Shown here: in pieces, positions 14,601-58,557 of the stretch
Position numbering within the stretch: the stretch's first letter is position 1
Layout: the number at the start of each line of letters is the position of its first letter
NCBI RefSeq assembly: GCF_004010195.1
Contig: NC_057749.1
Span: forward strand, 16,766,901-16,830,900
DNA: 64,000 nucleotides
Source of the DNA: Chiloscyllium plagiosum
Taxonomy: Eukaryota
Direction of reading: 5' to 3'
Translations under genes and position numbers: made by a program
Notes under the pieces: model-generated
Told to the model about the DNA's origin: nothing
Seen by the model: only the letters and a program-made list of their open reading frames with translations
Databases searched by the model: none

Positions 14601-17600
14601 TAACAACAGTGATTGCATTGCATGGAATCCAGCTTGGGAAATCCTGATGGTGTGAAGGTTGTACAAATGTTGGAGCTCTGTTGTTCTCCAAGAGGCTGAC
14701 ACTTTCCCCCCTTTCTGCAGATTGGCAAGGCATCGGATGATTGTTGAGCCTGAGGTGGTGATGGAGGCGGAATCTGAGGATGAAGGGGAGCCTTGGCACA
14801 TTGATCGTGAGGACACCAGTGAAGAGGAAGAGGAGGAAGTGGACGACGAGGTGAGTATGGATGTCATACTAGTGCCTAAGAAACAATGACATGTTAAAGA
14901 AGAGGACAGACCCACAGCTGGAAGTGAAGTGCTGAGATAGTGACTGGATTAAGGCTCAGAGGCCTAATGCAGACCCCAGAGACATTGCCAGGCAGCACAG
15001 GCCTGATAGTGACGAATCTGAACTTCTCGTTAGGATGTTATTTCTTTCATGCTTGTGGTTAATGACAGTTGAAGAAAGGCATCGCAAGGAGTGGTCGAAG
15101 TAAAAAACTTTGTAGTTAAGGGGAAGCTAAATAGTGAGGAAAGAAATTGTAGGATTACCTGAGATGAAGTAGAGTGGAGCACAAACATTGAGACTGACCT
15201 GTTGGGCTGAATGATCTGTTTTTACACCTTTTATTAAAAAGGCATTCAAGGCTAAGGCAGCCCCTGAATTTGTCCCAAACTGCCATGGTGAGATTTGAAC
15301 ATGTCTCAAGATCGCTTGCGAAGCCCACTGGATTACAAAATCAGTAGTATAACCATTCTGCTACCATCCCAGTCCAATCCTCTTTCCATGTGGCCTTTAA
15401 CAATCCAAATTCAGCCGGCAACATCGGATGCACCTCAGGTTTTGGTTTTCTGGCCCTGGAGCTGTTCTCCCAGTTGTCTGCTCACCCAGGATATAGGTGT
15501 TGGGGCTGAAACTTTCTAAGGACCTGGTATCTTTGCTGAGATGGCTTACTGCAGCCAATGCAGATAGAGAGAGTTAGCTTCAGCCTCCCATGAGCAACGA
15601 TCAGGACTCTGGCTGTGTTGCTGTTCTGGTGTAATGAAGACATGATGCCTTCCTGTTTCAAATAATCTGTCAAGGTAAACCCCTTCAACTGCATAAGTGA
15701 GGGAGCCAGAAAGAGTCAGCACCTAAACAACTACATGTCGGATAGGTTACCTTGGCTGGACAAGGGTAAGGGAGTAGAGGAGGGAAAAACTGATCTGTTG
15801 TCCGATAGATCTAGGGACGGCCATTTGCAGCCCAAACAGGTCATTCGATTCAATGGGTTTGCTCGAATCTCCAACCGATCTTCCTTCATCTTGGAACATG
15901 TTTATTTTTTTACATCTCCCTCACGTTTCCTAGATTTCCTTTAGGTGCATCTATATCGGTTCATCTCTACCAGTCCCAATGGTAACGAGCTCCACATTCT
16001 TGCCGCTCAGTAAAGCTGTTTCTCTGCATTCCCGATTGAATTTTGAGGCATTCTGATTATGAATTGAGTTGTGACCATGTGGAGAGCCTTGATCAGTTGG
16101 TGAGGTGACCGATTTAGAGCCATTTCTCTGGTATCTTTGACAGGAAATTGAGCGACGTCGGGCCATGATGAGACAGCGGGCTCAGGAAAGAGAGACCGAA
16201 GAATTGGAACTTTTGGAATTGGAGGATGAAGGTCGATCTGGAGAAGAGTCAGAAGAGGAGTCAGAGTACGAAGAATATACGGACAGTGAGGATGAAACTG
16301 AACCCAGGCTAAAACCTGTCTTTATAAGAAGGTATGATTTATCAGTAAAACTGACTAACCGATGTTTCTCGCACTAAGCAATATGAGGGTACACAACGTA
16401 ATCAGTAAAATTTGTCAATTCACTTGGCCCGCAGGCTGGCTGGTGTGAAATGAGTGCAGTAAGGAGGCCCTTCTGGGAATGAAGTTGGACAATTTGAGTA
16501 ACTAGAGTGAGATTGACTCTGTTCAACGTTTCTGCCCCTTCGCCATGACTGTTTGATGGGGACAGTCTAGAAGAGCTTCACTGTGAATCTGACCCCATGC
16601 TGTAACTGAACATGGGAATGTTTGGGGAGACTGGAGGGCCCTTTCCTCTGTATCTAACCTTATGCTGACCCTGACTTGGGAGTGTTTCGGTACATGCCAG
16701 AGGGAGCTTTGCTCTGTATCTAACCCCGTACTGGCACTGTTCAGGGGGTGTTTGATGGGGTCAGGGTGTTTTATTTTATATTGAACCCCGTGCTGTACCT
16801 GCAAGCGTTTGTTTGGGACTCAGTCAGATATTATAGTTTTGTTTTACTGGATAATTGCAGTTGAAAAAGAGCAACACCGTGTGGGTGAAGTAACTGCCAT
16901 TGCTGTATTTAAGGGCCAGCAAGACAGACTTGAGTGAGAAAGGAATGGAAGGAAATGCTGATGGAGTGGGATGTATTATTGGGTTGAATAAACCAACAGC
17001 TGATTATTATCAGCTTGTCTTTGTGGGATTTTGCTGTGCATAGATTAGCTGCCATGGTTTCCTGAATTTCAACAATATTTCAGAAGTATTTCATTACCTG
17101 AGAAGGGTTTTGGCAATATAAAATTGGTTTTAGTTAATTTAGTTATCTCTAGTTTTGTATGGTGAGCTTGTCTTTTGCAGCTCTCTTGCTGAACTTCTCC
17201 TTCTGATTTTCCAGGAAGGACCGTGTCACTGTGCAGGAACGTGAGGCCGAAGCCATAAAGCAAAAGGAGCTGGAGGCGGAGGCCAAGCGTTTGAGTGAGG
17301 AGCAGCGCAAATACACGTTGAAGGTACCGAGCATAGCCTATGCTCCTTGTGGGAAATCCTGCGCTGTGGTTACGGGTTGGGAATCTGGGAAGCCCTGGAC
17401 CAGTTGCATTGCTGGGTTTTGGAGACTGTCCAGTTTTTGGGGTGGAAAAAATTAAAAATCTCAGAACACCAGGTTATAGTCCATTTGGAAGTACCAGCTT
17501 TTGGAGCACTGCTCCTTCATTGGGTAGCGAGTGGGGTAAGATCATAGGACGCAACTTATAGTAAAAGATCAAAGTGTAATACAACTGATGTGATGTCTTG

Positions 17601-20600
17601 AACAAACCTAGATTGCTGTTAAGTCTTTAATCACTTAGAACAGGGGTGCAGATTTTAATTGATTAATATGTAAATCCCAGAACTACTTTCAAGTCACAGT
17701 CTCACGATAACTTAAGGTTTTATAAAAAATGGTGACATCTCACCTCAGATGATGCATTAAAGGTGTGAGGTTAGAATCTGCCTGTATCCCAACCTCGAGT
17801 CAGACTGGCTCTATTTCCAAAGTGGGAATTTTTTGGGGTGGTATTGGTGGAGGTAGACAACACCAATTTGTGGGAATGGGGGTTAGTGGAAGACCATTTT
17901 AGTAAGGGCAGATAATTCCCTGGTATATCATTTGTAGATTGTGGAGGAGGAGGCCAGGCGAGAGATTGAAGAGTCCAGGAGAACATTGTCAGCTCTCGAT
18001 GCACTGAACACAGATGATGAGAACGATGAAGAGGAATATGAGTCATGGAAAGTGCGAGAACTTAAACGCATCAAGCGGGACAGAGAGGAGCGGGAATCGT
18101 GAGTACTGTGTTTGATCATTAAGTAGAAGTTTGTCAGAACTGCAGCAGCTACCCATCCCCTAAACCCTTGCAGCAACACAATCAGCATACAGGTTACATA
18201 CCCAATTCTCACTATCCCATATTGAAGTTACTTGGTAATTTCTTTGAGCAGCATTTCTGATATGTCAGTACATTTCTTCCTTTAGTGTTTGTATTTGTAA
18301 TCAATGCTTACTTTGAATAAAATTAATTTTGCTTTCCTCTCTTCTAATTATGGGACTGTCAGTCTCTCTCCCTGTCTCCGCATGACTGTTTGCATGAATG
18401 AATTGATTGTTTTGTTTATGAAGAGTCACTCCTTGTTTCATTACCATCATGTGTTGCAGCATGGAGAAGGAGAAAGCTGAGATTGATCGTATGCATAATC
18501 TGACTGAAGAGGAAAGGCGAGCAGAACTTCGAGCCAACAGCAAAGCCATTACCAACAAGGCCAGCAAAGGGAAGTACAAATTCCTGCAGAAGTACTACCA
18601 CAGAGGAGCCTTCTTCATGGTGAGTGTGGCTAATTTCAACCAGTACTGACCCTTATGTCTGGGGTTCTCTTGTGAATCTGGTAATGGGTGCTTTAGCATA
18701 TGCTCACACTGCCATTGGTTATCCAGTGAATTGTACTGAGAAGCGTTTACAGCAGGAGTGGGCTCCAACATGACAGCCTAATACTCTGAATGCTATTGGC
18801 CAAGAGTAACAACCATTTGGTCTAGTCTGAGAGGGGTTGCTGCTGCATGTTGCACCAGGCCCCAGAGAGACAGCACCTTTCGAAGACGGTCATGGCTCTC
18901 ACTCTTGTTCAGTCATCAAGCAAGTGCTGATTATCTGCATAAATTGGACCAAAGGCAAATTGTGTTTTGTTTTATTGTAACCCCATTTGGTCTATTTTGG
19001 GAATATGCATCACTTATATAGTATATAATACCCATTGCTGTGTCAAATGAACTGATCTTTTTAATATCTAACAGGATGAAGAGGAGGATCTTTACAAACG
19101 GGACTTCAGTTCCCCGACACTGGAGGACCATTTCAATAAGACCATTTTGCCCAAAGTCATGCAGGTACAGTATTATGCACCTCGATTACTTGATGTTGCA
19201 CAGGCACAGGCGGTACCAATATGTGTGCGTTCCTGTACCACTCCCCTCTGATAAGAAACAGCTTCTGAGCAGTTTAGAAAAATGCACCTTTATTGCTTTA
19301 TGGGGACCTGGGGTAATGCCAGAAAAAGACTGGGTTTCAGAAAGAATCACAGCTCTGGGTGTGTGTGGGATAGAAGGGGATCAGCTGGAAGAACAGTGTC
19401 CTTGTCAGATGAGTAGAGGAAGATACTAAGTCCCACTGGACTCTGAGAACATATATGACATAGTCAGAGATATACAGCATGGAAATGGACCCTTTGGTCC
19501 AACCCGTCCATGCTGACCAGATATCCCAACCCAATCTAGTCCCACCTGCCAGCACCCGGCCCATATCCCTCCAAACCTTTTCTATTCATATACCCATCCA
19601 AATGCCTTTTTAAATGTTGCAGTTGTACCAGCCTCCACCACTTCCTCTGGCAGCTCATTCCATACACATACCACCCTCTGCGTGAATAAGTTGCCCCATA
19701 GGTCTCTTTTATATCTTTCCCCTCTCACCCTAAACCTATGTCCTCTAGTTCTGGACTTTTCCCTCCCCCCGCGAGAAGAGATTTTGTCTATTTATCCTAT
19801 CCATGCCCCTCATGATTTTTTAAACCTCTATAAGGTCACCCTTCAGCCTCCGACGCTCCAGGGAAAACAGACCCAGCCTGTTCAGCCTCTCCTGATAGCT
19901 CAAATCCTCCAACCCTGGCAACATCCTTGTAAATATTTTCTGAACCCTTTCAAGTTTCACAACATCTTTCCGATAGGAAGGAGACCAGAATTGCATGCAA
20001 TATTCCAACAGTGGCATAACCGATCTCCTGTACAGCTGCAACATGACGTCCCAACTCCTGTACTCAACACTCTGACCAATAAAGGAAAGCATACCAAACG
20101 CCGCCTTCACCATCCTATCTACTTGCGACTCCACTTTCAAGGACCTATGAATCTGCACTCCGAGGTCTTTGTTCAGCAACACTCCCTAGGACCTTACTAT
20201 TAAGTGTATAAGTCCTGTTAAGATTTGCTTTTCCAAAATGCAGCCCATTTATCTGAATTAAACTCCATCTGCCACTTCTCAGTCCATTGGCCCTGTTGTA
20301 ATCTGAGGTAACCTTGTCCAATTTTGGTGTAATCAGCAAACTTACTAACTAGACCTCTTATGCTCACATCCAAATCTATATATAAATGATGAAAAATAGA
20401 GGACCCAGCACTGATCCTTGTGGCATTCCACTGGTCACAAGCCTCCAGTCTGAAAAACAACCCTCCATCACCACCCTCTATCTTCTACCTTTGAGCCAGT
20501 TCTGTATCCAAATGGTGAGTTTTCTCTGTATTCCATGAAATCTAACCTTGCTAATCAGTCTCCCATGGGGAACCTTGTCGAACACCTTACTGAAGTCCGT

Positions 20601-33200: not shown

Positions 33201-34780
33201 GCCTGTGATAAACACTTCAGCTGTCATTGTCCTGCAGGAACCTCTCTTCACTATCTGTCACCACCCCATTCCACATAATCAAAAGTCTCCACTTGGAGCC
33301 GCAATCTGTTACCTTCCTGGTGATCAGTATCTCTCTTACCTGATCCAGTTCCTTGGGCTGTCTGACTATTTTTGAGTATTTCACATCCTTTTTTCCCTCG
33401 CCAGTCTGGAATAATCCCTGAGGTGAAAGCTTCTCATTCCACCGAGCTGTGCCTTGTATTCCGCAGCCCAGTAAAGAGCTGTGTTTTGATTTTATTTCCC
33501 TCTCTTGCAGGGAGAAAGAATTGGCAAAAGTGACCATCAGGAAGGAGGATGTTGAACTGATTGTAAGTGGTTTGCAAGTGTAAAAGTATTTGTTTGTGTT
33601 TGAGCTGTAACTCCAGCTCTTCTATGCCATACCATGCCCTGCTCTACAGGAGTCAGCCTGTCCAACAAAACATGCATTTAGGGAGAAGCTAAATGGAGGG
33701 AGGACGTTTATACAGATATCGCCAGCATGGACCATTTGGGCTGAATGACCTGTTTCTGGAAATCCTGTATAAATTTATGAAGTATTTTTTGTAATGTACT
33801 TCCATCAGTTAATTATGTACTGCAAGCAGATTGTGGTTTTGCCATGTTTACCCAGAGATCCTCCTTCAGGTCAAACTCTAAATAATTGTGCATCATTCTT
33901 AGTACTTTAACTTTCATGTACTCAAAGCTGATGGCATTTTAAGACTGATTAATTGACTGAAAACAGCGGACTAAAATAAAACTGTTGGTCTGTTTTTTGC
34001 AACAGAACTCCACTCCAGCCCTCAGCCCACACCGAATGATTTTATTGCAGTAGGGAAGGGACTGGTGTCTTGCAGGCAAAACAATAAACTGTGGCTCCCT
34101 CTGCCAGTCCAGCTGTTAAGGACCCATGATATTCAGAGAGATCTCCCTCTTTCAACCAGCAACCTAAGATGTTTTTCCAATTAATTAGTTCAAAGATGTT
34201 ATGACATACTTCCGGAGCAGGTAGGACCTGAACCCCAGGCCTTCTGCCTCAGAGGTAGGGACACTACCACTGTGCTACAAGAGCCCTTAAATAGGAACCT
34301 AACTGGTCGATCATCTCATTGCCTTTTCTGCATTGGTTGCTGAGAAAGTGATTGCTGTTCTAAAATATGAAGTGTATTGGATAAGCACCAGGATTTTGTA
34401 ACTTTATAGGAAGAGACCATTCTGCCCTCTGCTGGCTCTTTGACAAAGCTATCACATTTGTCCCACTTCCATTGCTCTTTCCCTATTGTCCCTGTAAGCA
34501 TTATTCCCTTCACATATTTATTGACTTGAATTTTTTGTTTGGGTTGCTATGGAATCTGCTTCTTTCACAATTCTACGGAAACTGTGTTTTTAAAACCAAG
34601 AGGGTCTCCTGCAGAAGTCAGTGAAGGTGAGGGGGACTGATCTGTTTAAAAAATACTGATCTAATTTTAACCTCTTCTCTCCAGATGAACGAAATGGAGA
34701 TCTCTCGAAGTGCAGCAGAGCGTGGTTTACGAGAGCACTTGGGAAATGTCGTTGAAGCCTTGATAGCTCTCACTGACTGA
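30067..34780 (+). CDS. HYPK: Huntingtin-interacting protein K (NatA regulator), 4 exons, 118 aa: join(30067..30219,32043..32098,33511..33562,34685..34780)
   Basis: ERPAEKPRKHDSGAADLERVTDYAEEKEI, AMSVIGDRRSREQKAKQER, EKELAKVTIRKEDVELI, MNEMEISRSAAERGLREHLGNVVEALIALTD*. GT-AG introns, total 357 nt. Confidence 0.97.
30445..31750 (-). mobile_element. CR1 LINE fragments in HYPK intron 1
   Basis: LGPLVFIIYTNDLD..VSKFAGDNKI, QWVEEWQMQFN; endonuclease remnant at ~31660-31750. Confidence 0.88.
32043..32098 (+). CDS. HYPK: HYPK exon 2
   Basis: ctacag|GCAATG...GAAAG|gtcaga. Confidence 0.95.
33511..33562 (+). CDS. HYPK: HYPK exon 3
   Basis: cttgcag|GGAGAAA...CTGATT|gtaagt. Confidence 0.95.
34685..34780 (+). 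CDS. HYPK: HYPK exon 4 (UBA-like C-terminus)
   Basis: ctccag|ATGAAC...GACTGA. Confidence 0.95.
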   Translation: MNEMEISRSAAERGLREHLGNVVEALIALTD

Positions 34781-40501: not shown

Positions 40502-40528
40502 ATGTGTGAGCGCAGTTTCCGAGCACAG
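40502..40528 (+). CDS. SERINC4: SERINC4 probable coding exon 1 (MCERSFRAQ)
   Basis: ATG followed by a strong donor CAG|gtaagc in phase 0, matching exon 2. Nine codons ending in Q, like the SERINC5 first exon. No homology check was possible. Confidence 0.6.
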
Positions 40529-43500: not shown

Positions 43501-46500
43501 CCACTTGGATTTTTGGAGCATGGCAAATTCTGACAGTTCTGTTTATCACCTGGAGAGTTTAGACCATAAGACATAGGAGTGGAAGTAAGGCCATTCGGCC
43601 CATCGAGTTTGTACCTCATGAGATTGTTTGCTAGATCCTTCCAGAAAGCATTGAGTTAACGACATGTGAGTTTTCCTGTCCACCCCGAGTTGTTAACAAT
43701 GGGAGATTACTTACTTTGAAGAGTATTGTCAAACCTACACACTGAAAATTTACATTCTCGGGTTTCTGATTCAGAAATTGCAAAGTTTCATGTTAATTGA
43801 AGCCTCCCATTATAGTGGGATTTGTGCCTGTGTCTGTTGTTTTTTCTTGTTGCCAGCAGTGCTATAAAGCTACAGCATGGGACAACAGGCTTATTGTGTT
43901 TCAGGGTAATGTGCCAGAAGTGTACAGCCACTCACTCAGTCTCAGAGAGCGGGCAGACAGACAGCTTCATTCTGCCACTCTACCTGTCATTACAAACTGG
44001 AATGGAGTGCTGGGTCTCTTCTGGCTGAGAACATCCAAAAGGCAAACCAATTTGGCGATTTTCAATGGGGTGGCTGAGACTGCCAACTCGTTACTGTTCT
44101 GCTGAAGGTCATCATCACGATGTAGCATGAACTGAACAAATATGCTCCTGAGGCCACCGACTTGGGAACTGTGAAAAATATTGAGCTACTCCCATCATAG
44201 GAGGTGTCATGGGGAAAATATAGCAACACTTTCCCAGGGTAATAGAGCGGGCAATTTCATTGTAGAGGGAGCTTTACTCTACATCTAGCCCCGTGCTGTA
44301 CCTATTCTGGGAGAGTTTGATGGGGGACAGTGTAGAAGGAGATGTGCAGTGTAACTAACCCCCATGCTGTCCCTGTCCTGGAACTGATGGGGGGTAGTGT
44401 AGAGGGAGCTTTACTCTGTATCTAATCCCATGCTGTCCCTGTCCTGGGAGAGTTTGATGGGGAACAGTGTAGAGGAAGCTTTACTCTGTATCTAATCCCA
44501 TGCTGTCCCTCTCCTGGGAGTGTTTGATGGGGGACAATGTAGAGGGAGCTTTACTCTGTATCTAACCCCATGCTGTCCCTGTCCTGGGAGTGTTTGATGG
44601 GGGACGGTGTAGAGGGAGCTTTACTCTGTATCTAATCCGTGTTGTCCCTGTCCTGGGAGTGTTTGATGGGAGACAGTGTAGAGGGAGCTTTACTCTCTAT
44701 CTAACCCTGTGCTGTCCCTGTCCTGGGAGTGTTGTATGGGGACAATGTAGAGGGGCTTTACTCTATGTCTAATGCTGTGCTGTCCCCGTCCTGGGAGAGG
44801 TTGATGAAGGACAATAGGGGAACTGAAGTGGAATATGACCCCTTTCCAAATTGGACAGTACTTAATTTGATGAAGAAGATCTTCCTGGGTTAGATAGGGC
44901 TGTGCAGAAGGTGCAGCATCCTGGGGGTAGGTCCTGTTTCCTGGGTGTTGCCTGCTGTAAATTGATGTTCCATTTTGTTCCTCTCAGATTAGCTGCTGCT
45001 GCGGCCCTTCGCCCTGCTCTCTGTGCTGTCCCTTCCTGCCAGGAATTAAAGTCTCTTCTGGGTCCCGGCTGATGTACACCCTGTATCATATTGTCAGCTC
45101 CACTGGCTGCTGCCTCCTGCTCTCCAGGACAGTTGCAGAGTCAGTGAGAGAGAGAGTAAGTACAAACCATGGGTTCACATCAAACTGTAATCCACTCTGC
45201 GCCTTCTCTCTCCAGCAAAATCCTAGCAAGCCCTCACTTCCTCCTTCCTATCTCTGTCATCTCCAGTGCTGCTGTCCTCTGAGTTCCAAATGTCCTCCTT
45301 TTTCCTCTTTCCCACCTGCAATGTTCAATTCTTCCACCAAGAGGAGGCAGTATACATGGTACAGGATCAACTGTTTGAGTAGAGTTAGTGATGGGAGAGT
45401 GTACATGGGCTGTGGGGCAACCAGGCGGTGAGCTGAGTGAGATCTCTCACCCTCACACTGATGTGAATGCTTTTTAATGACTGTTGTGTTTCAACTCTCC
45501 TTAACCTGTCGATATTTAGCATGGTTGGATTTTTCTTTTGCAAAAATATTATTTAACAAAAAATTACAAAATAATTCAAATCAGACAGTACAGAAAACAT
45601 AACAAATATCACCTTTCTCAGGTGAGTACTTTCTACTCTGCGGCGCCTCTATTTGAACTAACAAGTAACTACCTTTATTCCAGTAGAAACTACAAGGGTT
45701 TCAGTAAATTAGTGGCCACATGCTACATAATAACAGAAAGTTCTCAGACAGTGCCTCTGCCCCAGACTTTCGTCCCTCAGCACCTCACCCCAGACTATGG
45801 AACCTGCTGCCCCACTGAGAGAGCCAGACATTTTGGGCAGAAGAAAGATTGCATCTCACGGAGTTGATGGTGCTGCAGGAATAGTTGATGTTGGTTCCAT
45901 TTCTCATGTTGAGCCTATGCTGCAGCAGTTTGACTCTCTCTGTTTCTCTCTCTCTCTCTCTCTGTCTCTGCTGCAGGTGCCTTTCTTCAGGTCTTTCTGT
46001 GAACAGTTGCAGCCAGGCTCAGACTGTGACATGTTAATTGGATATTCGGCGGTGTACAGAGTGTGTTTCGGCACAGCCTGCTTCTACCTGCTCCTCTGTG
46101 TGTTCCTCTTCAACGTCAAGTCCAGTCGGGATTACAGAGCCCTGATTCACAACGGGTAACCAGAGGATCTAAACCTGTCTCTGTGTGAGAGAGACTGTAA
46201 CAATACCAAACCAATCACTGCACACACACTCATTGATCCATTCCCTTGTTGACCAATCATTGCCTGCACGTTGACCTGCTTAATTTTCTCTGAAAGGGTC
46301 ACAATTTCTCAGTTTGATTTTAAACTCACGTCTCCACATTTCCACATTTTCTTGATCAAACATTCCTCACTGTGGCTGATAGCACTCTCACAGTGACACT
46401 CTATTACTCTATCTCAGTCTCACTCTCTTATTCTGTTACTCTGTCTTGGTCTGTCTCTCTGTTACACACTCACTCTCTTATTCTGTCTCAATATCACTCA

Positions 46501-49500
46501 CTCACTTACTCTGTCTCAGTCTCACTCACTCTTACTCTGTTACTTTGTCTCAGTCTCACTCACTCTTACTCACTCTGTTACTTTGTCTCAGTCTCACTAT
46601 CCTACTGTGTCTCTGTCACACTCATTCTATTACTCACTCTCTCTGTTAGTCACTCACTCTGTTACTCTGTCTCAGTCTCTCACTCACTGTTACTCACTCT
46701 GTTACTCAGTCTCTCACTCACTCTGTTACTCTGTCTCAGTCTCTCACTCACTGTTACTCACTATGTTACTGTCTCAGTCTCTCACTCACTGTTACTCACT
46801 ATGTTACTGTCTCAGTCTCTCACTCACTGTTACTCACTATGTTACTGTCTCAGTCTCTCACTCACTGTTACTCACTATGTTACTGTCTCAGTCTCTCACT
46901 CACTGTTACTCACTATGTTACTGTCTCAGTCTCTCACTCACTGTTACTCACTATGTTACTGTCTCAGTCTCTCACTCACTGTTACTCACTATGTTACTGT
47001 CTCAGTCTCTCACTCACTGTTACTCACTATGTTACTGTCTCAGTCTCTCACTCACTGTTACTCACTATGTTACTGTCTCAGTCTCTCACTCACTGTTACT
47101 CACTATGTTACTGTCTCAGTCTCTCACTCACTGTTACTCACTATGTTACTGTCTCAGTCTCTCACTCACTGTTACTCACTATGTTACTGTCTCAGTCTCT
47201 CACTCACTGTTACTCACTATGTTACTGTCTCAGTCTCTCACTCACTGTTACTCACTATGTTACTGTCTCAGTCTCTCACTCACTGTTACTCACTATGTTA
47301 CTGTCTCAGTCTCTCACTCACTGTTACTCACTATGTTACTGTCTCAGTCTCTCACTCACTGTTACTCACTATGTTACTGTCTCAGTCTCTCACTCACTGT
47401 TACTCACTATGTTACTGTCTCAGTCTCTCACTCACTGTTACTCACTATGTTACTGTCTCAGTCTCTCACTCACTGTTACTCACTATGTTACTGTCTCAGT
47501 CTCTCACTCACTGTTACTCACTATGTTACTGTCTCAGTCTCTCACTCACTGTTACTCACTATGTTACTGTCTCAGTCTCTCACTCACTGTTACTCACTAT
47601 GTTACTGTCTCAGTCTCTCACTCACTGTTACTCACTATGTTACTGTCTCAGTCTCTCACTCACTGTTACTCACTATGTTACTGTCTCAGTCTCTCACTCA
47701 CTGTTACTCACTATGTTACTGTCTCAGTCTCTCACTCACTGTTACTCACTATGTTACTGTCTCAGTCTCTCACTCACTGTTACTCACTATGTTACTGTCT
47801 CAGTCTCTCACTCACTGTTACTCACTATGTTACTGTCTCAGTCTCTCACTCACTGTTACTCACTATGTTACTGTCTCAGTCTCTCACTCACTGTTACTCA
47901 CTATGTTACTGTCTCAGTCTCTCACTCACTGTTACTCACTATGTTACTGTCTCAGTCTCTCACTCACTGTTACTCACTATGTTACTGTCTCAGTCTCTCA
48001 CTCACTGTTACTCACTATGTTACTGTCTCAGTCTCTCACTCACTGTTACTCACTATGTTACTGTCTCAGTCTCTCACTCACTGTTACTCACTATGTTACT
48101 GTCTCAGTCTCTCACTCACTGTTACTCACTATGTTACTGTCTCAGTCTCTCACTCACTGTTACTCACTATGTTACTGTCTCAGTCTCTCACTCACTGTTA
48201 CTCACTATGTTACTGTCTCAGTCTCTCACTCACTGTTACTCACTATGTTACTGTCTCAGTCTCTCACTCACTGTTACTCACTATGTTACTGTCTCAGTCT
48301 CTCACTCACTGTTACTCACTATGTTACTGTCTCAGTCTCTCACTCACTGTTACTCACTATGTTACTGTCTCAGTCTCTCACTCACTGTTACTCACTATGT
48401 TACTGTCTCAGTCTCTCACTCACTGTTACTCACTATGTTACCAGTCTTTCACTCACTGTTACTCACTCTGTTACTCTGTCTCAGTCTCTCACTCACTCTG
48501 TTACTCTGTCTCAGTCTCTCACTCACTGTTACTCACTCTGTTACTCTGTCTCAGTCTCTCTCACTCATTCTGTTACTCTGTCTCAGTCTCTCACTCTATT
48601 ACTCTGTCTCAGTCTCTCACTCACTATTACTCATTCTGTTACTCTGTCTCAGTCTTTCACTCACTGTTACTCACTCTGTTACTCTGTCTCAGTCTCTCAC
48701 TCACTGTTACTCTGTCTCAGTCTTTCACTCACTGTTACTCACTCTGTTACTCTGTCTCAGTCTCTCACTCACTCTGTTACTCTGTCTCAGTCTCTCACTC
48801 ACTGTTACTCACTCTGTTACTCTGTCTCAGTCTCTCTCACTCATTCTGTTACTCTGTCTCAGTCTCTCACTCACTGTTACTCATTCTGTTACTCTATCTC
48901 ATTCTCTCACTCACTCTGTTACTCTGTCTCAGTCTCTCATTCAATGTTACTCACTCTGTTACTCTGTCTCAGTCTCTCACTCACTCTGTTACTCTGTCTC
49001 AGTCTCTCCCCCGACCTCTGTTACTGTGTCTCAGTCGCTCATTCACTCTGTTACACTGTCTCCGTCTCTCTCACTCATCTCTGTTACTCTGTTTCGGTGT
49101 TATTTACTCTGTTACTCTCTGGTTTAGGTTTTGGTTTGTGAAATTCCTGATGTTGGTCGGCATCTCCGCTGCTGCCTTTTTTATTCCCGATGAGTCGTTT
49201 CTGCACGGTGAGTGAATTTATAAACTTGCTTCACCCCTACAGAGGCAGCTTCCAGTAAACCATCTTGGTAGCTCTGTTTCATGTATGACTCAGAGATAGT
49301 GAGCGGCAACAGAATATTCAACCATGGGGTGCTGCACAGCCTGACCTGGTTGACTCTGGCCCTGATGGTCACCCTCAGACACAGTAGCTGTTACTGCAGT
49401 GTGAACAGGAGCAGGAATTCAGGTAAATCTCCCCTTCCCCACTCCAACCAGATGAGCCAAATGGCCTATTTCTATGTGGTAAAGTCTGACATGAGATTGG

Positions 49501-52500
49501 ACGCTAAAGCTGGTGTATAGCCAACTAGTAGCCACCAGATGGCAGGAAACCCCAACAAATGAAACCAAATTTGCCCCAGAACACCCCCCCCCCCTCCATT
49601 CCTCTTACCTATAGCTGCTGTTCACCTCTGTCACACCTGACCCAGCCCTGTCCCACTGTTCAATGAATCCCTACATCACAGAAAGAGGCCATTCAGTCCG
49701 GGTCCACACCAGAGATCATCCCATCCAGACCCATCCCCCTACCCTAACCTTGGAACCCTGCATTCTCCCATGGCCAATCCACTCCAACCTGCACATCTTT
49801 GGACTGTGGGAGGAAACCCATGCAGACACGGGGAGAATGTGCAGACTTCGCCCTCACTGTCACCTGAGGGTGGAATCGAACCTAAGTCCCTTCTGCTGTG
49901 AGGCAACAGTGTTGATAGACATTACTTTGTCTCTGGATCAGTGGTGCTGGAAGAGCACAGCAATTCAGGCAGCATCCGAGGACAGGCAAAATCGACGTTT
50001 CGGGCAAAAGCCCTTCATCCCGAAACGTCGATTTTGCCTGTCCTCGGATGCTGCCTGAATTGCTGTGCTCTTCCAGCACCACTGACCCAGAATCTGGTTT
50101 CCAGCATCTGCAGTCATTGTTTTTACCTCATTACTTTGTCTCAGTCTCTCTCACCCACTCGATCTTACTCACTGTCACCAGGGAGAACAAATAATTTGTG
50201 TGCTGAAAATGTGTTGCTGGAAAAGCGCTGCAGGTCAGGCAGCATCCAAGGAGCAGGAGAATCGACGTTTTGGGCATGAGCCCTTCTTCAGGCTCATGCC
50301 CGAAACGTCAATTCTCCTGCTCCTTGGATGCTGCCTGACCTGCTGCGCTTTTCCAGCATCACATTTTCAGCTCTGATCTCCAGCATCTGCAATCCTCACT
50401 TTCTCCTTGAAAATAATTTGTGTGAACAACATCTGAGTGAGGGAGTGAGTGGTGTATTAGTGAGATGGTGACAGACGTTTGTCTTGGTGCATTCAAATGG
50501 TCCATTAGGCAGACATCTCTCCAGACGTAAGACTGTGGGACTCTCCCTGTAGATTAGAGTGAGGGGCTCAGGGAGGACCCTGATGGATCTGGGCCAAGGG
50601 TGTCACTGTGGGGTTCTGCACCGGGTGACTGAGGTTGTAGTAACCTCATTACTCGAGGCTGATACCAGTAAACAATCAAAACCCCTCCCTGCTACTGAGT
50701 GAGCTGACTGTCAGTCAGAACCTGATGGCCTCTGGTCTGAGTGATTCCTTTAGTTTTCCTCGTCTGTGTATGTCTGTCAGGGAGTTTTCTGACGAATGTC
50801 TGCACTTTCCCTTCTGTCTCTCTTCCCTGGTCAACGCTGTTACCGGGTGGATCACAGTTTGGCGATACGTTGGCGTTACTGGGGCACTCTTGTTCATTTT
50901 GATGCAGCTCTCTCTCATCAGTGTGTTTGCACATTTCTGGAACAAGAACTGGTGAGTCCAATTCTGTGGATTTTTGTCTCCTGGCCCAAAAGCTCCCCCT
51001 TCCCTGATGGTGCAGGATCAGGTAGTGTTCATCACTGAGGGCACAGTGACTTGGCAGACCAGCACCAGCCCAGCTCCAGAGAGTGGCCTGGGCCTGAGTT
51101 TGCTGTGGTCAGTGGGTTGGGTGCCCCTGGGGGGATAGCACCCAGGGACAGCGCAGCTCCAGGGAGAAGACCAGTGTATCAGGGTCAGCAAACCACCTGG
51201 GGAACGGGCAACGCATCGGCCAATCACTGGGCACACTCCCTCAGTGAGGCCATAGCAACACTCCGCTAGAGAGCTGTTTGAAGCTGGTGTTAAACCAAGG
51301 ATCAGAGTCCGAAAGGTTCTGGAAGGGAATTCCAGAGTCAGGACCTGGAATAAGGCACCATCACCAAAAGGAGAACAGTTACACTCAGGGAGGCTCGAGA
51401 AGTCAGAAATCACAGGTGGTTTCACATTTTGACTTCACTGAGAGCTTTACTCTGTATCTAACCCCGTGCTGTCCCTGTCCTGGGAGTGTTTGATGGGGGA
51501 CAGTGTAGAGGGAGCTTTACCCTGTATCTAACCCCGTGCAGTCCCTGTCCTCGGAGTGTTTGATGGGGGACAGTGTAGAGGGAGCTTTACCCTGTATCTA
51601 ACCCCGTGCAGTCTCTGTCCTGGGAGTGTTTGATGGGGACAATGTAGAGGGAGCTTTACTCTGTATCTAACCCCATGCTGTCCCTGTCCTGGGAGTGTTT
51701 GATGGGGGACCGTGTATAAGGAGCTTTACTCTGTATCTAACCCCATGCTGTCCCTGTCCTGATAGTGTTTGATGGGGGACAGTGTAGAGTGAGCTTTACT
51801 CTGAATCTAACCCCGTGCTATCCCTGTCCTGGGAGCTGGGTAATTCTGGGTGAATGAACTAAACCTGCTGCTTCAGTCTGGTGGTTCCAGGTGAATCAGG
51901 AACGGTCTGCGATGTGGATTGCGTTGGTGTAATGTTTCATCGATCACCTTGGGCTCTCTCTGTGGCTGTTGCTCTCTGACAGGATGACAGGAGCTGCACA
52001 TGGGAAGTGGTGGAGTCTTGCTGTGCTGGCTGTGACCCTACTGTTCTATGCTCTGGCAGTGACTGCGTTCTCGCTCATGTACAAGTTCTACACCCACCCT
52101 GCAGGCTGCTTGGTCAACAAGGCCCTGCTCATCTTGAACATCAGTCTGTGTTTCCTGGTGTCACTGTTATCCCGTAGTCAGTGTGTTCAGCAAAGGCAGC
52201 CCCACAGCAGTCTACTGCAGGCCTCCATCATCAGCTGCTATGTCATGTACCTGACATTCTCTGCCCTGTCCAGCCGGCCCCCAGAGACAGTGCAATATCA
52301 GGGTCAGAACATCAGTGTGTGCTCACCGAGTGTCAATGAGAATGGCGTTCAGGCCAAGGGCAGGCTCATTGCCTTCTTTGGAGCTGCCGTCATGTACTGC
52401 TGCGTGCTGTTTGCTTGCAACGAAGCCTCTTACCTGGCCAAGGTGTTTGGGCCATCGTGGATGGTCCGTGTTTACAGATACGAGTTCAAGAAAGCATCAT

Positions 52501-55500
52501 GTTGCTTCTGCTGTCTGGACGAGGAGTTGCCGAGCTGTGAGGTGGAGGTGACGGGAGGCCAGGAGGTGATCCACGATGAGAGGGACCGAGTCACATACAG
52601 TTACTCCTCCTTCCACTTTGTGTTCTTCCTGGCCTCACTCTATGTCATGATGACCCTGACCAACTGGTTCAAGTAAGTCTAAGAAAGAGATTGTTAGGGG
52701 TGGGGTGGCTGTTNNNNNNNNNNNNNNNNNNNNNNNNNNNNNNNNNNNNNNNNNNNNNNNNNNNNNNNNNNNNNNNNNNNNNNNNNNNNNNNNNNNNNNN
52801 NNNNNNNNNNNNNNNNNNNNNNNNNNNNNNNNNNNNNNNNNNNNNNNNNNNNNNNNNNNNNNNNNNNNNNNNNNNNNNNNNNNNNNNNNNNNNNNNNNNN
52901 NNNNNNNNNNNNNNNNNNNNNNNNNNNNNNNNNNNNNNNNNNNNNNNNNNNNNNNNNNNNNNNNNNNNNNNNNNNNNNNNNNNNNNNNNNNNNNNNNNNN
53001 NNNNNNNNNNNNNNNNNNNNNNNNNNNNNNNNNNNNNNNNNNNNNNNNNNNNNNNNNNNNNNNNNNNNNNNNNNNNNNNNNNNNNNNNNNNNNNNNNNNN
53101 NNNNNNNNNNNNNNNNNNNNNNNNNNNNNNNNNNNNNNNNNNNNNNNNNNNNNNNNNNNNNNNNNNNNNNNNNNNNNNNNNNNNNNNNNNNNNNNNNNNN
53201 NNNNNNNNNNNNNNNNNNNNNNNNNNNNNNNNNNNNNNNNNNNNNNNNNNNNNNNNNNNNNNNNNNNNNNNNNNNNNNNNNNNNNNNNNNNNNNNNNNNN
53301 NNNNNNNNNNNNNNNNNNNNNNNNNNNNNNNNNNNNNNNNNNNNNNNNNNNNNNNNNNNNNNNNNNNNNNNNNNNNNNNNNNNNNNNNNNNNNNNNNNNN
53401 NNNNNNNNNNNNNNNNNNNNNNNNNNNNNNNNNNNNNNNNNNNNNNNNNNNNNNNNNNNNNNNNNNNNNNNNNNNNNNNNNNNNNNNNNNNNNNNNNNNN
53501 NNNNNNNNNNNNNNNNNNNNNNNNNNNNNNNNNNNNNNNNNNNNNNNNNNNNNNNNNNNNNNNNNNNNNNNNNNNNNNNNNNNNNNNNNNNNNNNNNNNN
53601 NNNNNNNNNNNNNNNNNNNNNNNNNNNNNNNNNNNNNNNNNNNNNNNNNNNNNNNNNNNNNNNNNNNNNNNNNNNNNNNNNNNNNNNNNNNNNNNNGGTG
53701 AGGGGGGGTGTTTGGGGTAAGGATGGTGTTTGGGGTGATGGGGGTGATGTGGGTGAGGGGGGTGTTTGCGGTGAGGGGTTGGGTCTGAGGCCACTCGTGT
53801 TGAGCTTGCGAGATCCACACTGAGCTGCCAGTAGCCATCCCTGGAAGATGCTATGCCTGACCTCAGTGTCCTGGCTTCAAGCTGTCATTGATGGGCCTTA
53901 TCTCCAGTGAGAAGAAGGGCTTATGCCCGAAGCGTCGATTCTCCTGTTCCCTGGATGCTGCCTAACCTGCTGCGCTGTTCCAGCGGCACATTTTCGGCTC
54001 TGATCTCCAGCATCTGCAGACCTCACTTTCTCCTTATCTCCAGTGAGGAGTGTGTGTGTGACCGTGATGGGGAGAGCCTGGAAGTTGCCTGGATTCCTTC
54101 CCAGTCTATCTCGAGGCGCAAGGGCAGAACAGGCAGAGGGTTTGGCCAATGGGACTATGGGCCCTTCACCCAGGAAGGGGAAATTACAGCGAACTCAGTT
54201 TAGATTCCATTGAGAAATCAGCAAGGATTCTCTAGCTCCCTGCCCCCCATTGGCCTGATTTCTGGTGGAGATGGACTGATCTGAGTTTGTGCGTAACCAT
54301 GACACCATGGTGAGAGCAGAAACCGAAACTAGGGGGCTGTGGAGAGGGCCAATCAATAATAGACAGTCAAAATGAATCCACTCGGGAATTCAGAAGAAAC
54401 ATCCTTCCCTAGAGAGTAGGAAGAGGATTGGAACTCACTCCCAAAGGGAATAATGTGTAATGGATGGGAAAGTTAACCAAACCCGTAGTGAAAAGCTGGC
54501 GAGGAGATGGTGAGTAAGAACAAAGTTCCAGTGGAGAATCACCCAGGCACAGAGCAGCAGGCCCCAGTCAGTCTGCTTTTCTGATCAGGTTTGATGGAGT
54601 TCTTGTTGAACGAAGGTGGAGTCTTCCTGTTTATTATTTTTGATATAAACACTAAAGGCCGAGTCAGTAATTACATTTCAACATTTTAAAACAGTTTCCA
54701 GAGTATATCAATTTCTCGATAAAAAGATGCACTTACGTCATTGTGAATGATCTCCATCTCTCTTTCTCTCCCTCTGTTTTTCTCACCTGTTTGTCTCCCT
54801 CTCCCTCTGTCTTGCTAACCCTCCTTCTTTCTCCTTATCTGTCTCTGTTGCTCTCCATCATTCTTTGTCTCTTTCAATCTCTCTTTCTCCACTTCTCAGT
54901 CTCCATTCCTCTCCCTCCTTCTGTCTAGCCCTGCTTCTGTCTCTCCTTGTCCCTCTGTCTCTTCTCGCTCTTTCCCCACCATTGTCTGTCTCTCTCTTTG
55001 TCCCTCATCCTCTCTCTGTCTCTCTCTGTTTCCCTCTGTCTCTGTCACTTGCTGTCTGTCTGTCTGTCCTTCCCTCTGTCTGTGTCTCTATCTCTCTTTC
55101 TGTCTCTGTCTCTCTGTCTGTCTGCCTTTGCCTCTCTCTCTCTCTCTATCTCTGTGTCTCTCTATCTCTTTCTCCAGGGTGGCACGATGGCACAGTGGTT
55201 AGCACTGCTGCCTCACAGCACCAGAGACCCGGGTTCAATTCCCACCTCAGGTGACTGACTGTGTGGAGTTTGCACGTTCTCCCCGTGTCTGCGTGGGTTT
55301 CCTCCGGGTGCTCCAGTTTCCTCCCACAGTCCAAAGATGTGCAGGTTAGGTGAATTGGCCATGCTAAATTGCCCGTAGTGTTAGGAAAGGGGTAAATGTA
55401 GGGGTATGGGTGGATTGCGCTTCGGCGGGTCGGTGTGGACTTGTTGGGCTGAAGGGCCTGTTTCCACACTGTAATGTAATGTAATCTAATGTAATGTGTC

Positions 55501-55980
55501 TGTCGGTCTCTCTGTCTGTCGGTCTCTCTGTCTGTCGGTCTCTCTGTCTGTCGGTCTCTCTGTCTGTCGGTCTCTCTNNNNNNNNNNNNNNNNNNNNNNN
55601 NNNNNNNNNNNNNNNNNNNNNNNNNNNNNNNNNNNNNNNNNNNNNNNNNNNNNNNNNNNNNNNNNNNNNNNNNNNNNNNNNNNNNNNNNNNNNNNNNNNN
55701 NNNNNNNNNNNNNNNNNNNNNNNNNNNNNNNNNNNNNNNNNNNNNNNNNNNNNNNNNNNNNNNNNNNNNNNNNNNNNNNNNNNNNGTCTCTCTGTCCCTT
55801 GATGATTGCGCCAGCTATGAGTCTGCGACGCTGGAGACAGTGTTTTCCCAGGGAAGCTGGTCCACGTTCTGGGTGAAGAGTTGTTCCTGTTGGCTCTGTC
55901 TGCTGCTGTACCTGCTGATCCTCCTTGCCCCGCCGTGCTGTGTGGACAGTGAGAGACGGCGCGCGGTCCACGTGAAATAG
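40502..55980 (+). CDS. SERINC4: Serine incorporator 4, 7 coding exons, 467 aa: join(40502..40528,44988..45155,45977..46155,49128..49207,50858..50951,51983..52672,55815..55980)
   Basis: SERINC motifs [86 protein letters not shown]. The NEASYLA..FGP and YTHPAGC motifs are SERINC4-type, and the gene is syntenic with HYPK/MFAP1. Total 1404 nt, open frame. Exon 1 is less certain. Confidence 0.92.
40717..41020 (+). mobile_element. tRNA-derived SINE
   Basis: GGTGGCTCAGTGGTTAGCACTGCTGCC..GGGTTCGATTCC A/B boxes, CR1-like tail. Confidence 0.85.
41165..42095. repeat. 33-bp minisatellite, ~28 copies (GCACTGTCGGAGGGTCAGTGCTGAGGGAGTGCC)
   Basis: 11-aa periodicity in the ORF track. Confidence 0.97.
42495..43345. 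repeat. 33-bp minisatellite, ~26 copies (CCCAGTGAGAGTCAGCACCTTCAGGAACTGTAT)
   Basis: 11-aa periodicity in the ORF track. Confidence 0.97.
44262..44812. repeat. ~70-bp satellite, ~8 copies
   Basis: GGGAGTGTTTGATGGGGGACAGTGTAGAGGGAGCTTTACTCTGTATCTAACCCC.TGCTGTCCCTGTCCT. Confidence 0.95.
44988..45155 (+). CDS. SERINC4: SERINC4 exon 2
   Basis: ctctcag|ATTAGC...GAGAGA|gtaagt; [14 protein letters not shown]...CCLLLSRTV. Confidence 0.92.
45977..46155 (+). CDS. SERINC4: SERINC4 exon 3
   Basis: ctgcag|GTGCCT...AACGG|gtaacc; VPFF...[15 protein letters not shown]...RALIHNG. Confidence 0.95.
46400..49120. repeat. Intronic satellite: ~45 apparently identical 38-bp units (GTCTCAGTCTCTCACTCACTGTTACTCACTATGTTACT, ~46730-48440) with degenerate flanks
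   Basis: 38-aa periodicity (3 x 38 nt) in all three + frames. Confidence 0.97.
49128..49207 (+). CDS. SERINC4: SERINC4 exon 4
   Basis: gtttag|GTTTTGG...CACG|gtgagt; [26 protein letters not shown]. Confidence 0.95.
49668..49915 (-). mobile_element. Diverged tRNA-derived SINE
   Basis: ACCTGCACATCTTTGGACTGTGGGAGGAAACC...GGAATCGAACC, as in the 26671 copy. Confidence 0.8.
49934..50128. mobile_element. Penelope-derived fold-back insertion
   Basis: 14-bp TSD CATTACTTTGTCTC (49920-49933, 50129-50142); about 70-bp near-perfect inverted arms. Confidence 0.85.
50203..50410. mobile_element. Penelope-derived fold-back insertion (second subfamily)
   Basis: 14-bp TSD AAATAATTTGTGTG (50189-50202, 50411-50424); about 80-bp inverted arms. 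Confidence 0.85.
50858..50951 (+). CDS. SERINC4: SERINC4 exon 5
   Basis: tcacag|TTTGG...AACTG|gtgagt; WRYVGVTG...FAHFWNKNW. Confidence 0.95.
51441..51836. repeat. ~70-bp satellite, ~5.5 copies
   Basis: Same unit as 44262-44812. Confidence 0.95.
51983..52672 (+). CDS. SERINC4: SERINC4 exon 6 (unusually large, 690 nt)
   Basis: tgacag|GATGACA...TTCAA|gtaagt; uninterrupted frame from [10 protein letters not shown] to MTLTNWF. Confidence 0.95.
52714..53696. other. Assembly gap (N run); further gaps at ~30230-30254 and ~55578-55785
   Basis: Runs of N flanked by G-rich or simple repeats. Confidence 0.99.
53912..54031 (+). mobile_element. Penelope-derived single-arm insertion
   Basis: Direct repeat CCTTATCTCCAGTGAG at 53896-53911 and 54032-54047; begins inside a degenerate hammerhead core. 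Confidence 0.8.
54755..55176. repeat. CT/CTGT-rich low-complexity tract
   Basis: Pyrimidine-rich simple repeats; a 20-bp TCTGTCGGTCTCTCTG-type repeat follows at 55497-55577 and runs into the gap. Confidence 0.85.
55177..55495 (+). mobile_element. Full-length young tRNA-derived SINE
   Basis: Near-identical to the reverse complement of 26671-26987; A/B boxes; (TAATG)n tail. Confidence 0.92.
55815..55980 (+). CDS. SERINC4: SERINC4 exon 7 (last coding)
   Basis: gccag|CTATGAG...AAATAG; [26 protein letters not shown]...LAPPCC. Confidence 0.93.
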
Positions 55981-56850
55981 CTGCCTATCAGGACTAGGGA
56001 ACATTCACTGCGACTGGGGACAGTCTCTGGGATTGGGAATACTCACAGGGATTGAGAACGCTTTCCATGATTTGGTATACTTGCCAGGATTGGGAATTCT
56101 CTGGGACTGGGAACTCTCTCTGTGATTTTAGAAGCAACAGCGAACTGGATGGAATCTTCTAGAAGCCAATCTTCTGCTTCCTTTCACAAACACTGAGGGT
56201 ACAGCACACTAGTCTGAGATGGTTTGCGCACAGGTTTTTGGATTTTGTCTCCACAGGATACGATGGTCTTGTGACTCTGACATCGCTCAGGAGATTCCGA
56301 GAGTTCGAATCCCACCAGGACAGACTCCAAGATCATACTGAATACATCTGGCCATTTGTGAGCTGCCAGCAAGCAAACTGACCAGAAGAATCTGCTGGAT
56401 CTCCTGCTGGTCCTAAAACCCAACCTGTTGATTAATATCCTTTGGGGGAGGGGGCCCTGTTGTCCCACTGATCTTTTCTGGTCCCACTCTCTGTGTGGCC
56501 GCTGAAACAACCCAACGAATTCCTTTAAACAAGAAAGGGCAGGAGATGGAGTAAAGATGGAGAAACTGTTCAATAGGACGAAGAACTGCAGCTGCCGATG
56601 ATCTGAAACAAAAGCAGACAGTGCTGGAGAAGCTCAGCAAGTCGGACAGCATCTGTGGAGAGAGAGGAACAGAGTTCGTGTTTCTGGTCTGGGCTGACCC
56701 TTGTTTAGAGACTGTTTCCAGTGACGAGAGGGAAGAGAATTGAGAAAGAACCACAGGGAGAGAGGAGACTGGGATCTGGAACGACAGGAACATTCCGAAG
56801 GGAATCAAATAAAAACTGAAGGGAAGTGTGGCGAAAGAGCCGGGGACTGG

Positions 56851-58164
56851 CTATTTACCCTATCCATGCCCCTCATAATTTTGTAAACCTCTATAAGGTC
56901 ACCCCTCAGCCTCCGATGCTCCAGGGAAAACAGCCCCAGCCTGTTCAGCCTCTCCCTGTAGCTCAGATCCTCCAACCCTGGCAACATCCTTGTAAATCTT
57001 TTCTGAACCCTTTCAAGTTTCACAACATCTTTCCGATAGGAAGGAGACCAGAATTGCATGCAATATTCCAACAGTGGCCTAACCAATGTCCTGTACAGCC
57101 GCAACATGACCTCCCAATTCCTGTACTCAATACTCTGACCAATAAATGAAAGCATACCAAACGCCTTCTTCACTATCCTATCTACCTTCGACTCCACTTT
57201 CAAGGAGATATGAACCTGCACTCCAAGGTCTCTTTGTTCAGCAATACTCCTTTGGACCTTACCATTAAGTGTATAAGTCCTGCTAAGATTTGCTTTCTCA
57301 AAATGCAGCACCTCACATTTATCTAAATTAAACTCCATCTGCCACTTCTCAGCCCATTGACCCATTTGGTCCAGATCCTGTTGTAATCTGAGGGAACCCT
57401 CTTCGCTGTCCACTACACCTCCAATTTTGGTGTCATCTGCAAACTTACTAACTGTACCTCTTATGCTCGCATCCAAATCATTTATGTAAATGACAAAAAG
57501 TACAGGGCTCTGCACCGATCCTTGTGGCAATCCTTGTGTCACAGGCCTCCAGTCTGAAAAACAACCCTCCACCACCACCCTCTGTCTTCTACCCTTGAGC
57601 CAGTTCTGGATCCATATGGCTAGTTCTCCCTGTATTCCATGAGATCTAACCTTACTAACCAGTCTCCCATGGGGAACCTTGTCAAATGCCTTACTGAAGT
57701 CCATATAGATCACATCTACTCTGCCCTGATCAATCTTCTTTGTTACTTCTTCAAAAAACTCAATCAAGTTTGTGAGACATGATTTCCCATGCACAAAGCC
57801 GTGTTGACTATCCCGAATCAGTCCTTGCCTTTCCAAATACATGTATATCCTGTCCCTCAGGATTCCCTCCAACAACTTGCCCATCACCGAGGTCAGGCTC
57901 ACCGGTCTATAGTTCCCTGGCTTGTCTTTACCGCCCTTCTTAAACAGTGGTACCACGTTTGCCAACCTCCAGTCTTCCGGCAGCTCACCTGTGACTATCG
58001 ATGATACAAATATCTCAGCAAGAGGCCCAGCAGTCACTTCTCTACAGAGTTCCCACAGAGTTCTCGGGTACACCTGATCAGGTCCTGGGGATTTATCCAC
58101 CTTTAACCGTTTCAAGACATCCAGCACTTCCTCCTCTGTAATCTGGACATTTTGCAAGATGTCC
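56851..58164 (-). mobile_element. Young CR1 ORF2 segment with an uninterrupted RT frame, truncated at both ends
   Basis: ORF 56805..58157: [40 protein letters not shown]. Confidence 0.95.
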
Positions 58165-58557
58165 AGATTCCCATGTTTACACGAGCAATCCCAACCCTAA
58201 AACTCTCACAGACACATGGATAGAGAGTGGGAATTTGTCTGTAATTGTTCAATGTTCACAATCTGGAGACAGGAAGCTGTCAGGACTGAGCTTTGCTCAG
58301 AGCCCTCTCTGTCCTTAATGACAGCTTTCAAACTGGACCATAGGAAATATTCATGTTCAATGACCAGAACTTTGTAATGTTCTCAATAAAACCTGTTACA
58401 CTGGCCTCGGTTTATCATTCTGTTTGGGTCAGATCTTTACTCTCCATGAACCAATTATCACCCGATCAAAATTAGCGCTCCAGTAGGGAGGTGGTGTGAT
58501 GTTCACATTTTCAGATGTTGCTGGTTTTTCAGATTTGCTCTGTTTCAGAGTGCATCA

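Follow-up and report, generated by a model that had tools for sequence, protein, structure and literature searches.

The locus described here raises the question of why a vertebrate gene that is interrupted by introns elsewhere should carry one long internal exon, and by what route that exon arose. The gene is SERINC4 of the bamboo shark Chiloscyllium plagiosum. It lies in a stretch of 64,000 nucleotides (nt), positions 16,766,901 to 16,830,900 of the forward strand of contig NC_057749.1 (RefSeq assembly GCF_004010195.1), which we call the window and to which all coordinates refer. A first-pass annotation, made from the sequence alone, had read its 690-nt exon as the probable product of a block loss of five introns. 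In the following, we describe the exon, its presence in genomic DNA, the introns that it once contained, the age of their loss and, finally, the mechanism.

A search of GT-AG boundaries gave one open model of seven exons, in which all six introns are of the GT-AG type:

40502..40528, forward strand: SERINC4 exon 1, coding part (27 nt).
44988..45155, forward strand: exon 2 (168 nt), GT-AG model.
45977..46155, forward strand: exon 3 (179 nt), GT-AG model.
49128..49207, forward strand: exon 4 (80 nt), GT-AG model.
50858..50951, forward strand: exon 5 (94 nt); the upstream loose end of a spliced contig matches its 3' end.
51983..52672, forward strand: fused internal exon 6 (690 nt, end of W183 to start of N413), found in the model, in genomic contigs and in the spliced contig.
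55815..55980, forward strand: last coding exon (166 nt including the stop; ancestral exon 12); the spliced contig matches its 5' end with its downstream loose end.

The joined frame encodes 467 amino acids (aa) without a difference from the named C. plagiosum entry SERINC4 X1 (P0251). Exon 6 is a single stop-free frame of phase 2-2, in which 1 nt ends W183, 229 full codons follow from M184 to F412, and 2 nt begin N413. It is flanked by AG at 51981-51982 and GT at 52673-52674, its donor (CAA/GTAAGT) agrees with the consensus at 8 of 9 positions, and its peptide is 100% identical (rounded) to entries of C. plagiosum and C. punctatum. The uninterrupted exon with clean AG and GT ends that the first-pass annotation had seen is thus borne out by the boundaries, the open frame and the contigs. 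The sizes that it gave for the six remaining exons also stand, but the introns that it called long are moderate, ranging from 821 to 4459 nt, with 1031 nt before the 690-nt exon and 3142 nt after it. The latter, intron 6 of the shark gene, holds two gaps of 983 and 208 N (1191 in all), the longer of which begins 41 nt past the donor.

The fusion exists in the genomic DNA of two bamboo-shark organisms, and it is spliced correctly. Four public runs (X1, X4, X10 and X14) were aligned to window 51845-52713 at 85% likeness. In X4 (organism A, 2.7 gigabases (Gb) of contigs) and in X10 (organism B, 3.2 Gb), one gap-free contig each contains the exon plus both intron flanks; in X14 (organism B, a different study), a single piece covers 51845-52571 and passes all five former intron sites. 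X4 is possibly the source of the assembly itself; X10 and X14 are not, and the organism B contigs from these two studies show 13-15 differences from the window. A transcript-like contig in X1 matches 51982-52672, and its loose ends are identical to the 3' end of exon 5 on one side and to the 5' end of exon 7 on the other, as expected of precise splicing. No joint, no indel and no second intron-bearing piece was found across the four aligned runs. When 72 words were sampled from the region, a fraction of 0.56-0.94 of them was kept in all 18 indexed public runs that contained them. In C. punctatum, P0249 is a single open reading frame (ORF) of 230 aa on a 912-nt contig, which corresponds to the 690-nt exon plus one read-through residue. 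As a side observation, position 52103 is A in the window and G in all four aligned runs, a synonymous difference that represents either an allele or an assembly error.

To locate the introns that relatives have in this stretch, we turned to protein calls from public contigs in which unspliced introns had been translated. We examined 143 proteins that were unnamed or short. A match to a SERINC4 reference of at least 80%, taken over trimmed segments without gaps, was obtained for 128, a set that includes about 20 paralogue or invertebrate matches to a motif only. The segment edges of these 128 ORFs cluster at aa 184, 253/255, 285/286, 327/329, 352/353, 365-367 and 412. From this set, 31 clear SERINC4 ORFs were kept by hand after removal of paralogue matches and single exon-11 ORFs. 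At the sites of introns 6, 7, 8, 9 and 10, breaks occur in 20, 11, 11, 5 and 8 of the 31, and run-throughs in 0, 2, 2, 6 and 1, respectively. As best references, the intron-retaining ORFs have teleost, frog, bird and mammal sequences, and one further ORF is lizard-like. The expectation that other vertebrates have five introns inside the stretch therefore agrees with the breaks seen at all five sites in bony-vertebrate SERINC4 ORFs. The read-through residues give phases 1, 1, 2, 0 and 1 for introns 6-10 and hence ancestral exon sizes of 212, 96, 127, 73, 37 and 145 nt, the sum of which is 690:

51983..52194, forward strand: ancestral exon 6 segment (212 nt); lost intron 6, phase 1, codon R254; 20 of 31 ORFs break and 0 run through.
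52195..52290, forward strand: ancestral exon 7 segment (96 nt); lost intron 7, phase 1, codon V286; 11 of 31 break.
52291..52417, forward strand: ancestral exon 8 segment (127 nt); lost intron 8, phase 2, codon C328; 11 of 31 break and 2 run through.
52418..52490, forward strand: ancestral exon 9 segment (73 nt); lost intron 9, phase 0, before K353; 5 of 31 break and 6 run through.
52491..52527, forward strand: ancestral exon 10 segment (37 nt); lost intron 10, phase 1, codon L365; an edge in 67 of 128 ORFs.
52528..52672, forward strand: ancestral exon 11 segment (145 nt); intron 11 (phase 2) retained.

Individual models and DNA from outside the sharks add to this map. The bowfin model P0216 reads through intron 7, and at site 9 the chimaera model P0259 and the sturgeon models P0072 and P0128 break directly after EF[KQ]. 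Introns 5 and 11 lie at identical codons in bamboo-shark and bony-vertebrate SERINC4. A metagenome scan yielded 49 loci, none of them from sharks, of which 3 were informative on intron phase: a teleost SERINC4 (L035) and a fish SERINC5 (L019), both with intron 10 in phase 1 and intron 11 in phase 2, and a worm-like gene (L040) with a phase-1 intron at the codon of site 6. Human SERINC4, which we take to have 12 coding exons, would be compatible in count with seven plus five. SERINC4 and SERINC5 are sister paralogues according to passages of 10.1101/2020.02.24.962506 and PMC10085909, and they are also sisters in our own tree of 33 rows. At least two of the five intron sites are, as judged from sequence, older than the jawed fishes, because site 10 is common to the sister paralogues and site 6 to the worm-like gene. 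By the same comparison, the 690-nt exon is to be read as intron loss rather than as intron gain in bony vertebrates, because SERINC4 and SERINC5 DNA from fishes share one site and the worm-like gene has another. The possibility that outgroup SERINC4 and SERINC5 are also intronless here does not agree with the ORFs and DNA, which carry introns.

Three further observations concern introns in other members of the family. Birds seemed to lack intron 7 (P0099 and P0261), a reading that was rejected; these ORFs represent partly spliced, chicken-like RNAs, because ORFs retaining intron 7 fall in the same cluster. Five teleost ORFs with a rockfish-like or gar-like best match (P0069, P0091, P0092, P0103 and P0263) read through introns 8, 10 and/or 11 and are continuous over site 9, so that one teleost group has likely lost intron 9 independently, while catfish and sturgeon models still break there. 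In fish SERINC1/3-like loci (L049, 1-243, and L018, 1141-1182), the end of the penultimate exon is tandemly repeated, as short copies, in the next intron.

The age of the loss can be bracketed from gene models of other cartilaginous fishes. An ab initio model of the whale shark (P0250) spans exactly M184-F412, and this species probably shares the fused exon. In the chimaera, introns 9 and 10 are likely retained, because the models P0258 and P0259 contain a pyrimidine-rich, intron-like insert right before exon 11 and P0259 also breaks at site 9. Among the remaining models, aa 184-412 are free of indels relative to all four of the other carpet sharks and to 11 of 15 sharks and rays outside the carpet sharks. 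The anomalies are confined to the other 4 of these 15 models (0 of 4 in other carpet sharks), and all are at site 9 or 10. The Amblyraja model ends in DEE-G-G-stop at the intron-10 site, which fits intron read-through or a one-base frameshift; Pristis has one additional residue there, as either a triplet insertion or a tandem acceptor would produce; in Carcharodon, 5 residues are missing at this site, which fits an intron either kept or lost; and in Leucoraja, one residue is missing at intron 9. In carpet sharks the codon at site 10 starts with T; of 13 aligned sharks and rays from other groups, 12 have G as its first base. On sequence, these anomalies may reflect retained introns or plain indels in a variable loop, and we treat them as weak hints. 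Because the chimaera models suggest introns, P0250 suggests fusion, and the other sharks and rays are ambiguous, we infer that the loss occurred after the chimaera split and before the split between whale shark and bamboo shark. Within this bracket, we lean slightly towards an event in carpet sharks only, rather than an older one in sharks or in sharks plus rays. Among 166 short proteins classified, no single-exon shark or ray ORF that could date the loss was found; 4 of the 166 had a cartilaginous-fish best match, all of them weak and none a shark SERINC4.

The introns were lost from the native SERINC4 gene and not from a copy of it. The 467-aa protein contains a full Serinc domain (PF03348, E 1.1e-131, aa 11-457). 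In the 33-row tree, SERINC4 and the carpet sharks within it each form a clade with support 100/100, grouped apart from SERINC5 and SERINC1-3, and the bamboo-shark end branch is short. The same tree places the Heptranchias perlo protein P0253, named 'serine incorporator 5', within SERINC4; this name looks wrong. Two genes lie upstream in the window, which we take to be neighbours of SERINC4 in humans as well:

11531..19164, forward strand: MFAP1, at least 8 GT-AG exons in an open chain (last exon not located), Pfam PF06991 on 17938-18096.
33511..34780, forward strand: HYPK, last two exons, Pfam PF19026 on 34685-34777.

MFAP1 retains its introns. When the sequenced part of the window was searched with tblastn and blastn, no further traces of the old exons appeared. 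A retrogene or processed copy was rejected, since six introns are kept, the neighbours are native, the protein nests in SERINC4 and exon relics were not found in the sequenced part; moreover, an inserted retrocopy would not produce a fused exon with ancestral splice sites at both ends. In passing, MFAP1, HYPK and SERINC4 are all on the forward strand (window 11531-55980); human HYPK is presumably in the opposite orientation, which would suggest a local inversion in one lineage. A 70-base-pair minisatellite is common to SERINC4 introns 1 (44261-44813) and 5 (51442-51835) and is present in decayed form in an MFAP1 intron (16641-16801). Exon 2 is skipped in the C. punctatum isoform P0122, and four residues are absent at the intron-2 junction in the stingray and devil-ray models P0126, P0254 and P0255 (a shifted donor).

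We consider it quite probable that the loss of the five introns goes back to one RNA-templated replacement reaching from old exon 6 into old exon 11, the template being inferred from the pattern of loss. In this process, spliced SERINC4 messenger RNA (mRNA) would have been present in the germ line and would have been either reverse-transcribed by an enzyme of the long interspersed element (LINE) or Penelope type or used directly in RNA-templated double-strand-break repair. The copy would have paired with the gene and replaced the genomic DNA between one exchange point in old exon 6 and another in old exon 11; alternatively, a tract extending further in the 3' direction may have been trimmed later, when meiotic recombination with an intact allele would have brought back intron 11. 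The resulting allele would have been neutral enough to become fixed, with the protein collinear and the large new exon still recognised.

Several features of the gene are in line with such a replacement. As the first-pass annotation had it, five adjacent introns are gone and the upstream introns and the last one are retained, which is seen in the gene model together with the outgroup break map. The losses are introns 6-10 of 11, and five consecutive introns can be chosen in 7 of 462 ways, i.e., with a probability of 0.015 under random loss of five. The outer boundaries of the fused exon keep the position and phase of the outgroups, as homologous replacement predicts, and the protein is collinear with nearly all relatives at sites 6-9. 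The five junctions do not favour deletion by microhomology, since AG stands at the end of just two of them. As for an enzyme, the window contains the following element, which we take to be CR1-like:

56805..58196, reverse strand: piece of a non-LTR (long terminal repeat) retroelement reverse transcriptase, stop-free over 462 aa, Pfam RVT_1, E 1.7e-35.

This piece lies 0.8 kilobases (kb) past the SERINC4 stop, and seven further decayed copies are present in the window; it shows that an enzyme source is available in the genome, not that it was used at SERINC4.

Other observations weigh against a single replacement. The losses fall in the 3' half of the gene, but the last intron is kept, contrary to the simplest model with priming at the poly(A) tail. 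Compared with chimaera, gar, sturgeon and coelacanth, all sharks and rays have a loop at site 10 that is shorter by 3 residues, so that this junction may not be precise. Multi-pass membrane proteins are under-represented among rodent genes with intron loss (passages of PMC3652778), and human SERINC4 is poorly expressed (passages of PMC10085909); in sharks, a SERINC4 transcript was seen in one run (X1). In addition, some teleost ORFs are without intron 9 alone, so single losses do occur in SERINC4.

Two of the alternative explanations deny that introns were lost. If the assembly had been patched with complementary DNA (cDNA) sequence, the 690-nt exon would be an artefact; the window is gappy, with the 983-N gap just beyond the donor, but genome-scale contigs of organism B from two studies run unbroken over all five sites, and 0.94 of the sampled words is present in each of four genome-scale contig sets from organism A, more than the approximately 0.77 possible without the words at the junctions. 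With independent genomic contigs spanning the exon, a patch from cDNA or from a retrocopy, which the first-pass annotation had named as a risk, is scarcely conceivable. The reverse history, in which the long exon is ancestral and the introns were gained in bony vertebrates, draws on the fact that no intron-bearing genomic DNA of a cartilaginous fish was directly observed. It is highly improbable, however, since intron 10 is in phase 1 at the same place in SERINC4 (L035) and SERINC5 (L019), site 6 recurs in L040, and the chimaera models have the pyrimidine-rich insert before exon 11 and the break at intron 9.

The other two accept the loss but assign it to a different route. Introns may have been lost stepwise, one or two at a time, by separate precise deletions through end joining or microhomology, or by several small RNA-templated events. 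The branches involved are long and unsampled, intron 9 alone has apparently been lost in some teleosts (5 ORFs that keep neighbouring introns), and the hints of retention in sharks and rays involve introns 9 and 10 only, so that introns 6-8 could have gone earlier. Against this stand the adjacency, at 0.015 under random loss, the retention of introns 1-5 and 11 and of those of nearby MFAP1, the AG microhomology at 2 of 5 junctions only, and the elephant shark, which had the fewest intron changes among the vertebrates compared (passages of PMC3964593); we regard stepwise loss as unlikely. A processed SERINC4 copy of older date at another locus could also have drifted and subsequently converted or replaced a segment of its parent, or a partial retrocopy could have been inserted and taken over. 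Such a donor might explain why, of the 14 residues found in carpet sharks alone, 12 fall within the fused exon, but compared with control clades and tips the difference is not significant (12:2 versus 118:57; two-sided Fisher test, p=0.23). Since the controls are equally skewed, faster protein change in the fused exon, whether from a drifted donor or from released splicing constraint, was rejected; branch lengths inside the exon exceed those outside on most branches. Local scores of intron 5 against exon 5 (22, versus 15-20 in 10 shuffles) and of intron 6 against exon 7 (25, versus 19-24) are slightly raised, but they amount to only 11-12 matching bases; this search for relics covers intron 6 of the shark gene apart from its 1191 N bases. 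In addition, both exon ends are exactly at ancestral splice sites, no second copy aligned at 85% likeness in any of the four runs, and there is no long branch. A drifted copy is thus very unlikely, and one RNA-templated replacement remains the preferred explanation.

Block loss of neighbouring introns is the clearest footprint of RNA written back into a germ-line gene of a vertebrate. According to passages of PMC3964593, the elephant shark shows fewer intron changes than any bony vertebrate compared, and given this slow change, a shark gene that has lost five introns is informative. Once mapped, the loss would mark relationships among sharks with almost no homoplasy. The fused exon also bears on exon definition, a hypothesis that predicts skipping at an exon size of 526 nt (passages of PMC2614967): the exon exceeds this size, at 690 nt between introns of 1.0 and 3.1 kb, and its inclusion, seen in one spliced contig (X1), could be quantified as a direct test. 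The exon is a multiple of three, and skipping would leave an in-frame product of 237 aa. No new function is implied, because the protein layout is unchanged. A bolder reading, which we hold to be doubtful, is that a single RNA-templated repair in the ancestor of carpet sharks affected a weakly expressed gene, that the exon is efficiently included, so that exon-definition limits are no bar, and that the case is the tip of unrecognised block loss in retroelement-rich sharks, overturning the notion of frozen gene structures in cartilaginous fishes. If true, it would be a natural test that exon-definition size limits permit such losses.

The class of mechanism is known, and the shark SERINC4 instance is apparently undescribed, in that we found no report of intron loss in this gene in sharks in the open-licence literature, supplements apart. 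Among known systems, the closest are in rodents: rat Cyld lost 7 adjacent introns and Apex2 lost 4 by mRNA-mediated loss through reverse transcriptase, among the few fixed cases listed for vertebrates, a handful of them in rodents (passages of PMC3652778, including Table 2). There, as in SERINC4, neighbouring introns were removed from a native gene, others were kept, and the change was fixed in the lineage; the present case differs in that the gene belongs to a cartilaginous fish and encodes a multi-pass membrane protein, and that the event is old and fixed. Such loss may still be called rare in vertebrates, as had been claimed, but rat Cyld documents it at this size, which makes it less surprising. 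In human tumours, up to five consecutive introns are precisely lost by RNA-templated double-strand-break repair, and these whole-intron deletions are attributed to Pol zeta rather than to a retrotransposon, with the evolutionary role left open (passages of PMC12065846). Consecutive introns lost at the native locus are common to both, as would be the spliced-mRNA template; the tumour deletions are somatic, whereas the shark loss is inherited, and it cannot discriminate Pol zeta from a retrotransposon enzyme. In Cryptococcus, loss of internal introns is common and the 3'-terminal intron is kept, which is explained by poly(A)-primed cDNA and later meiotic recombination (passages of PMC2395259). 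SERINC4 likewise lost consecutive internal introns and retained the 3'-terminal one but, unlike the short-intron genes of this fungus, it is a vertebrate gene with introns of 1-4 kb, and the result is an internal exon of 690 nt. Compared with SERINC4 of bony vertebrates, the shark gene is an orthologue by tree, and over the exon it is 62-71% identical to chimaera, gar, sturgeon and coelacanth, but it has 7 coding exons instead of 12. Retrogenes and processed pseudogenes are derived from spliced RNA and are intronless. The 690-nt stretch resembles them in being intronless and, as we read it, derived from spliced RNA; SERINC4 as a whole differs from them in keeping six introns at its native locus, with no poly(A) and no insertion scar.

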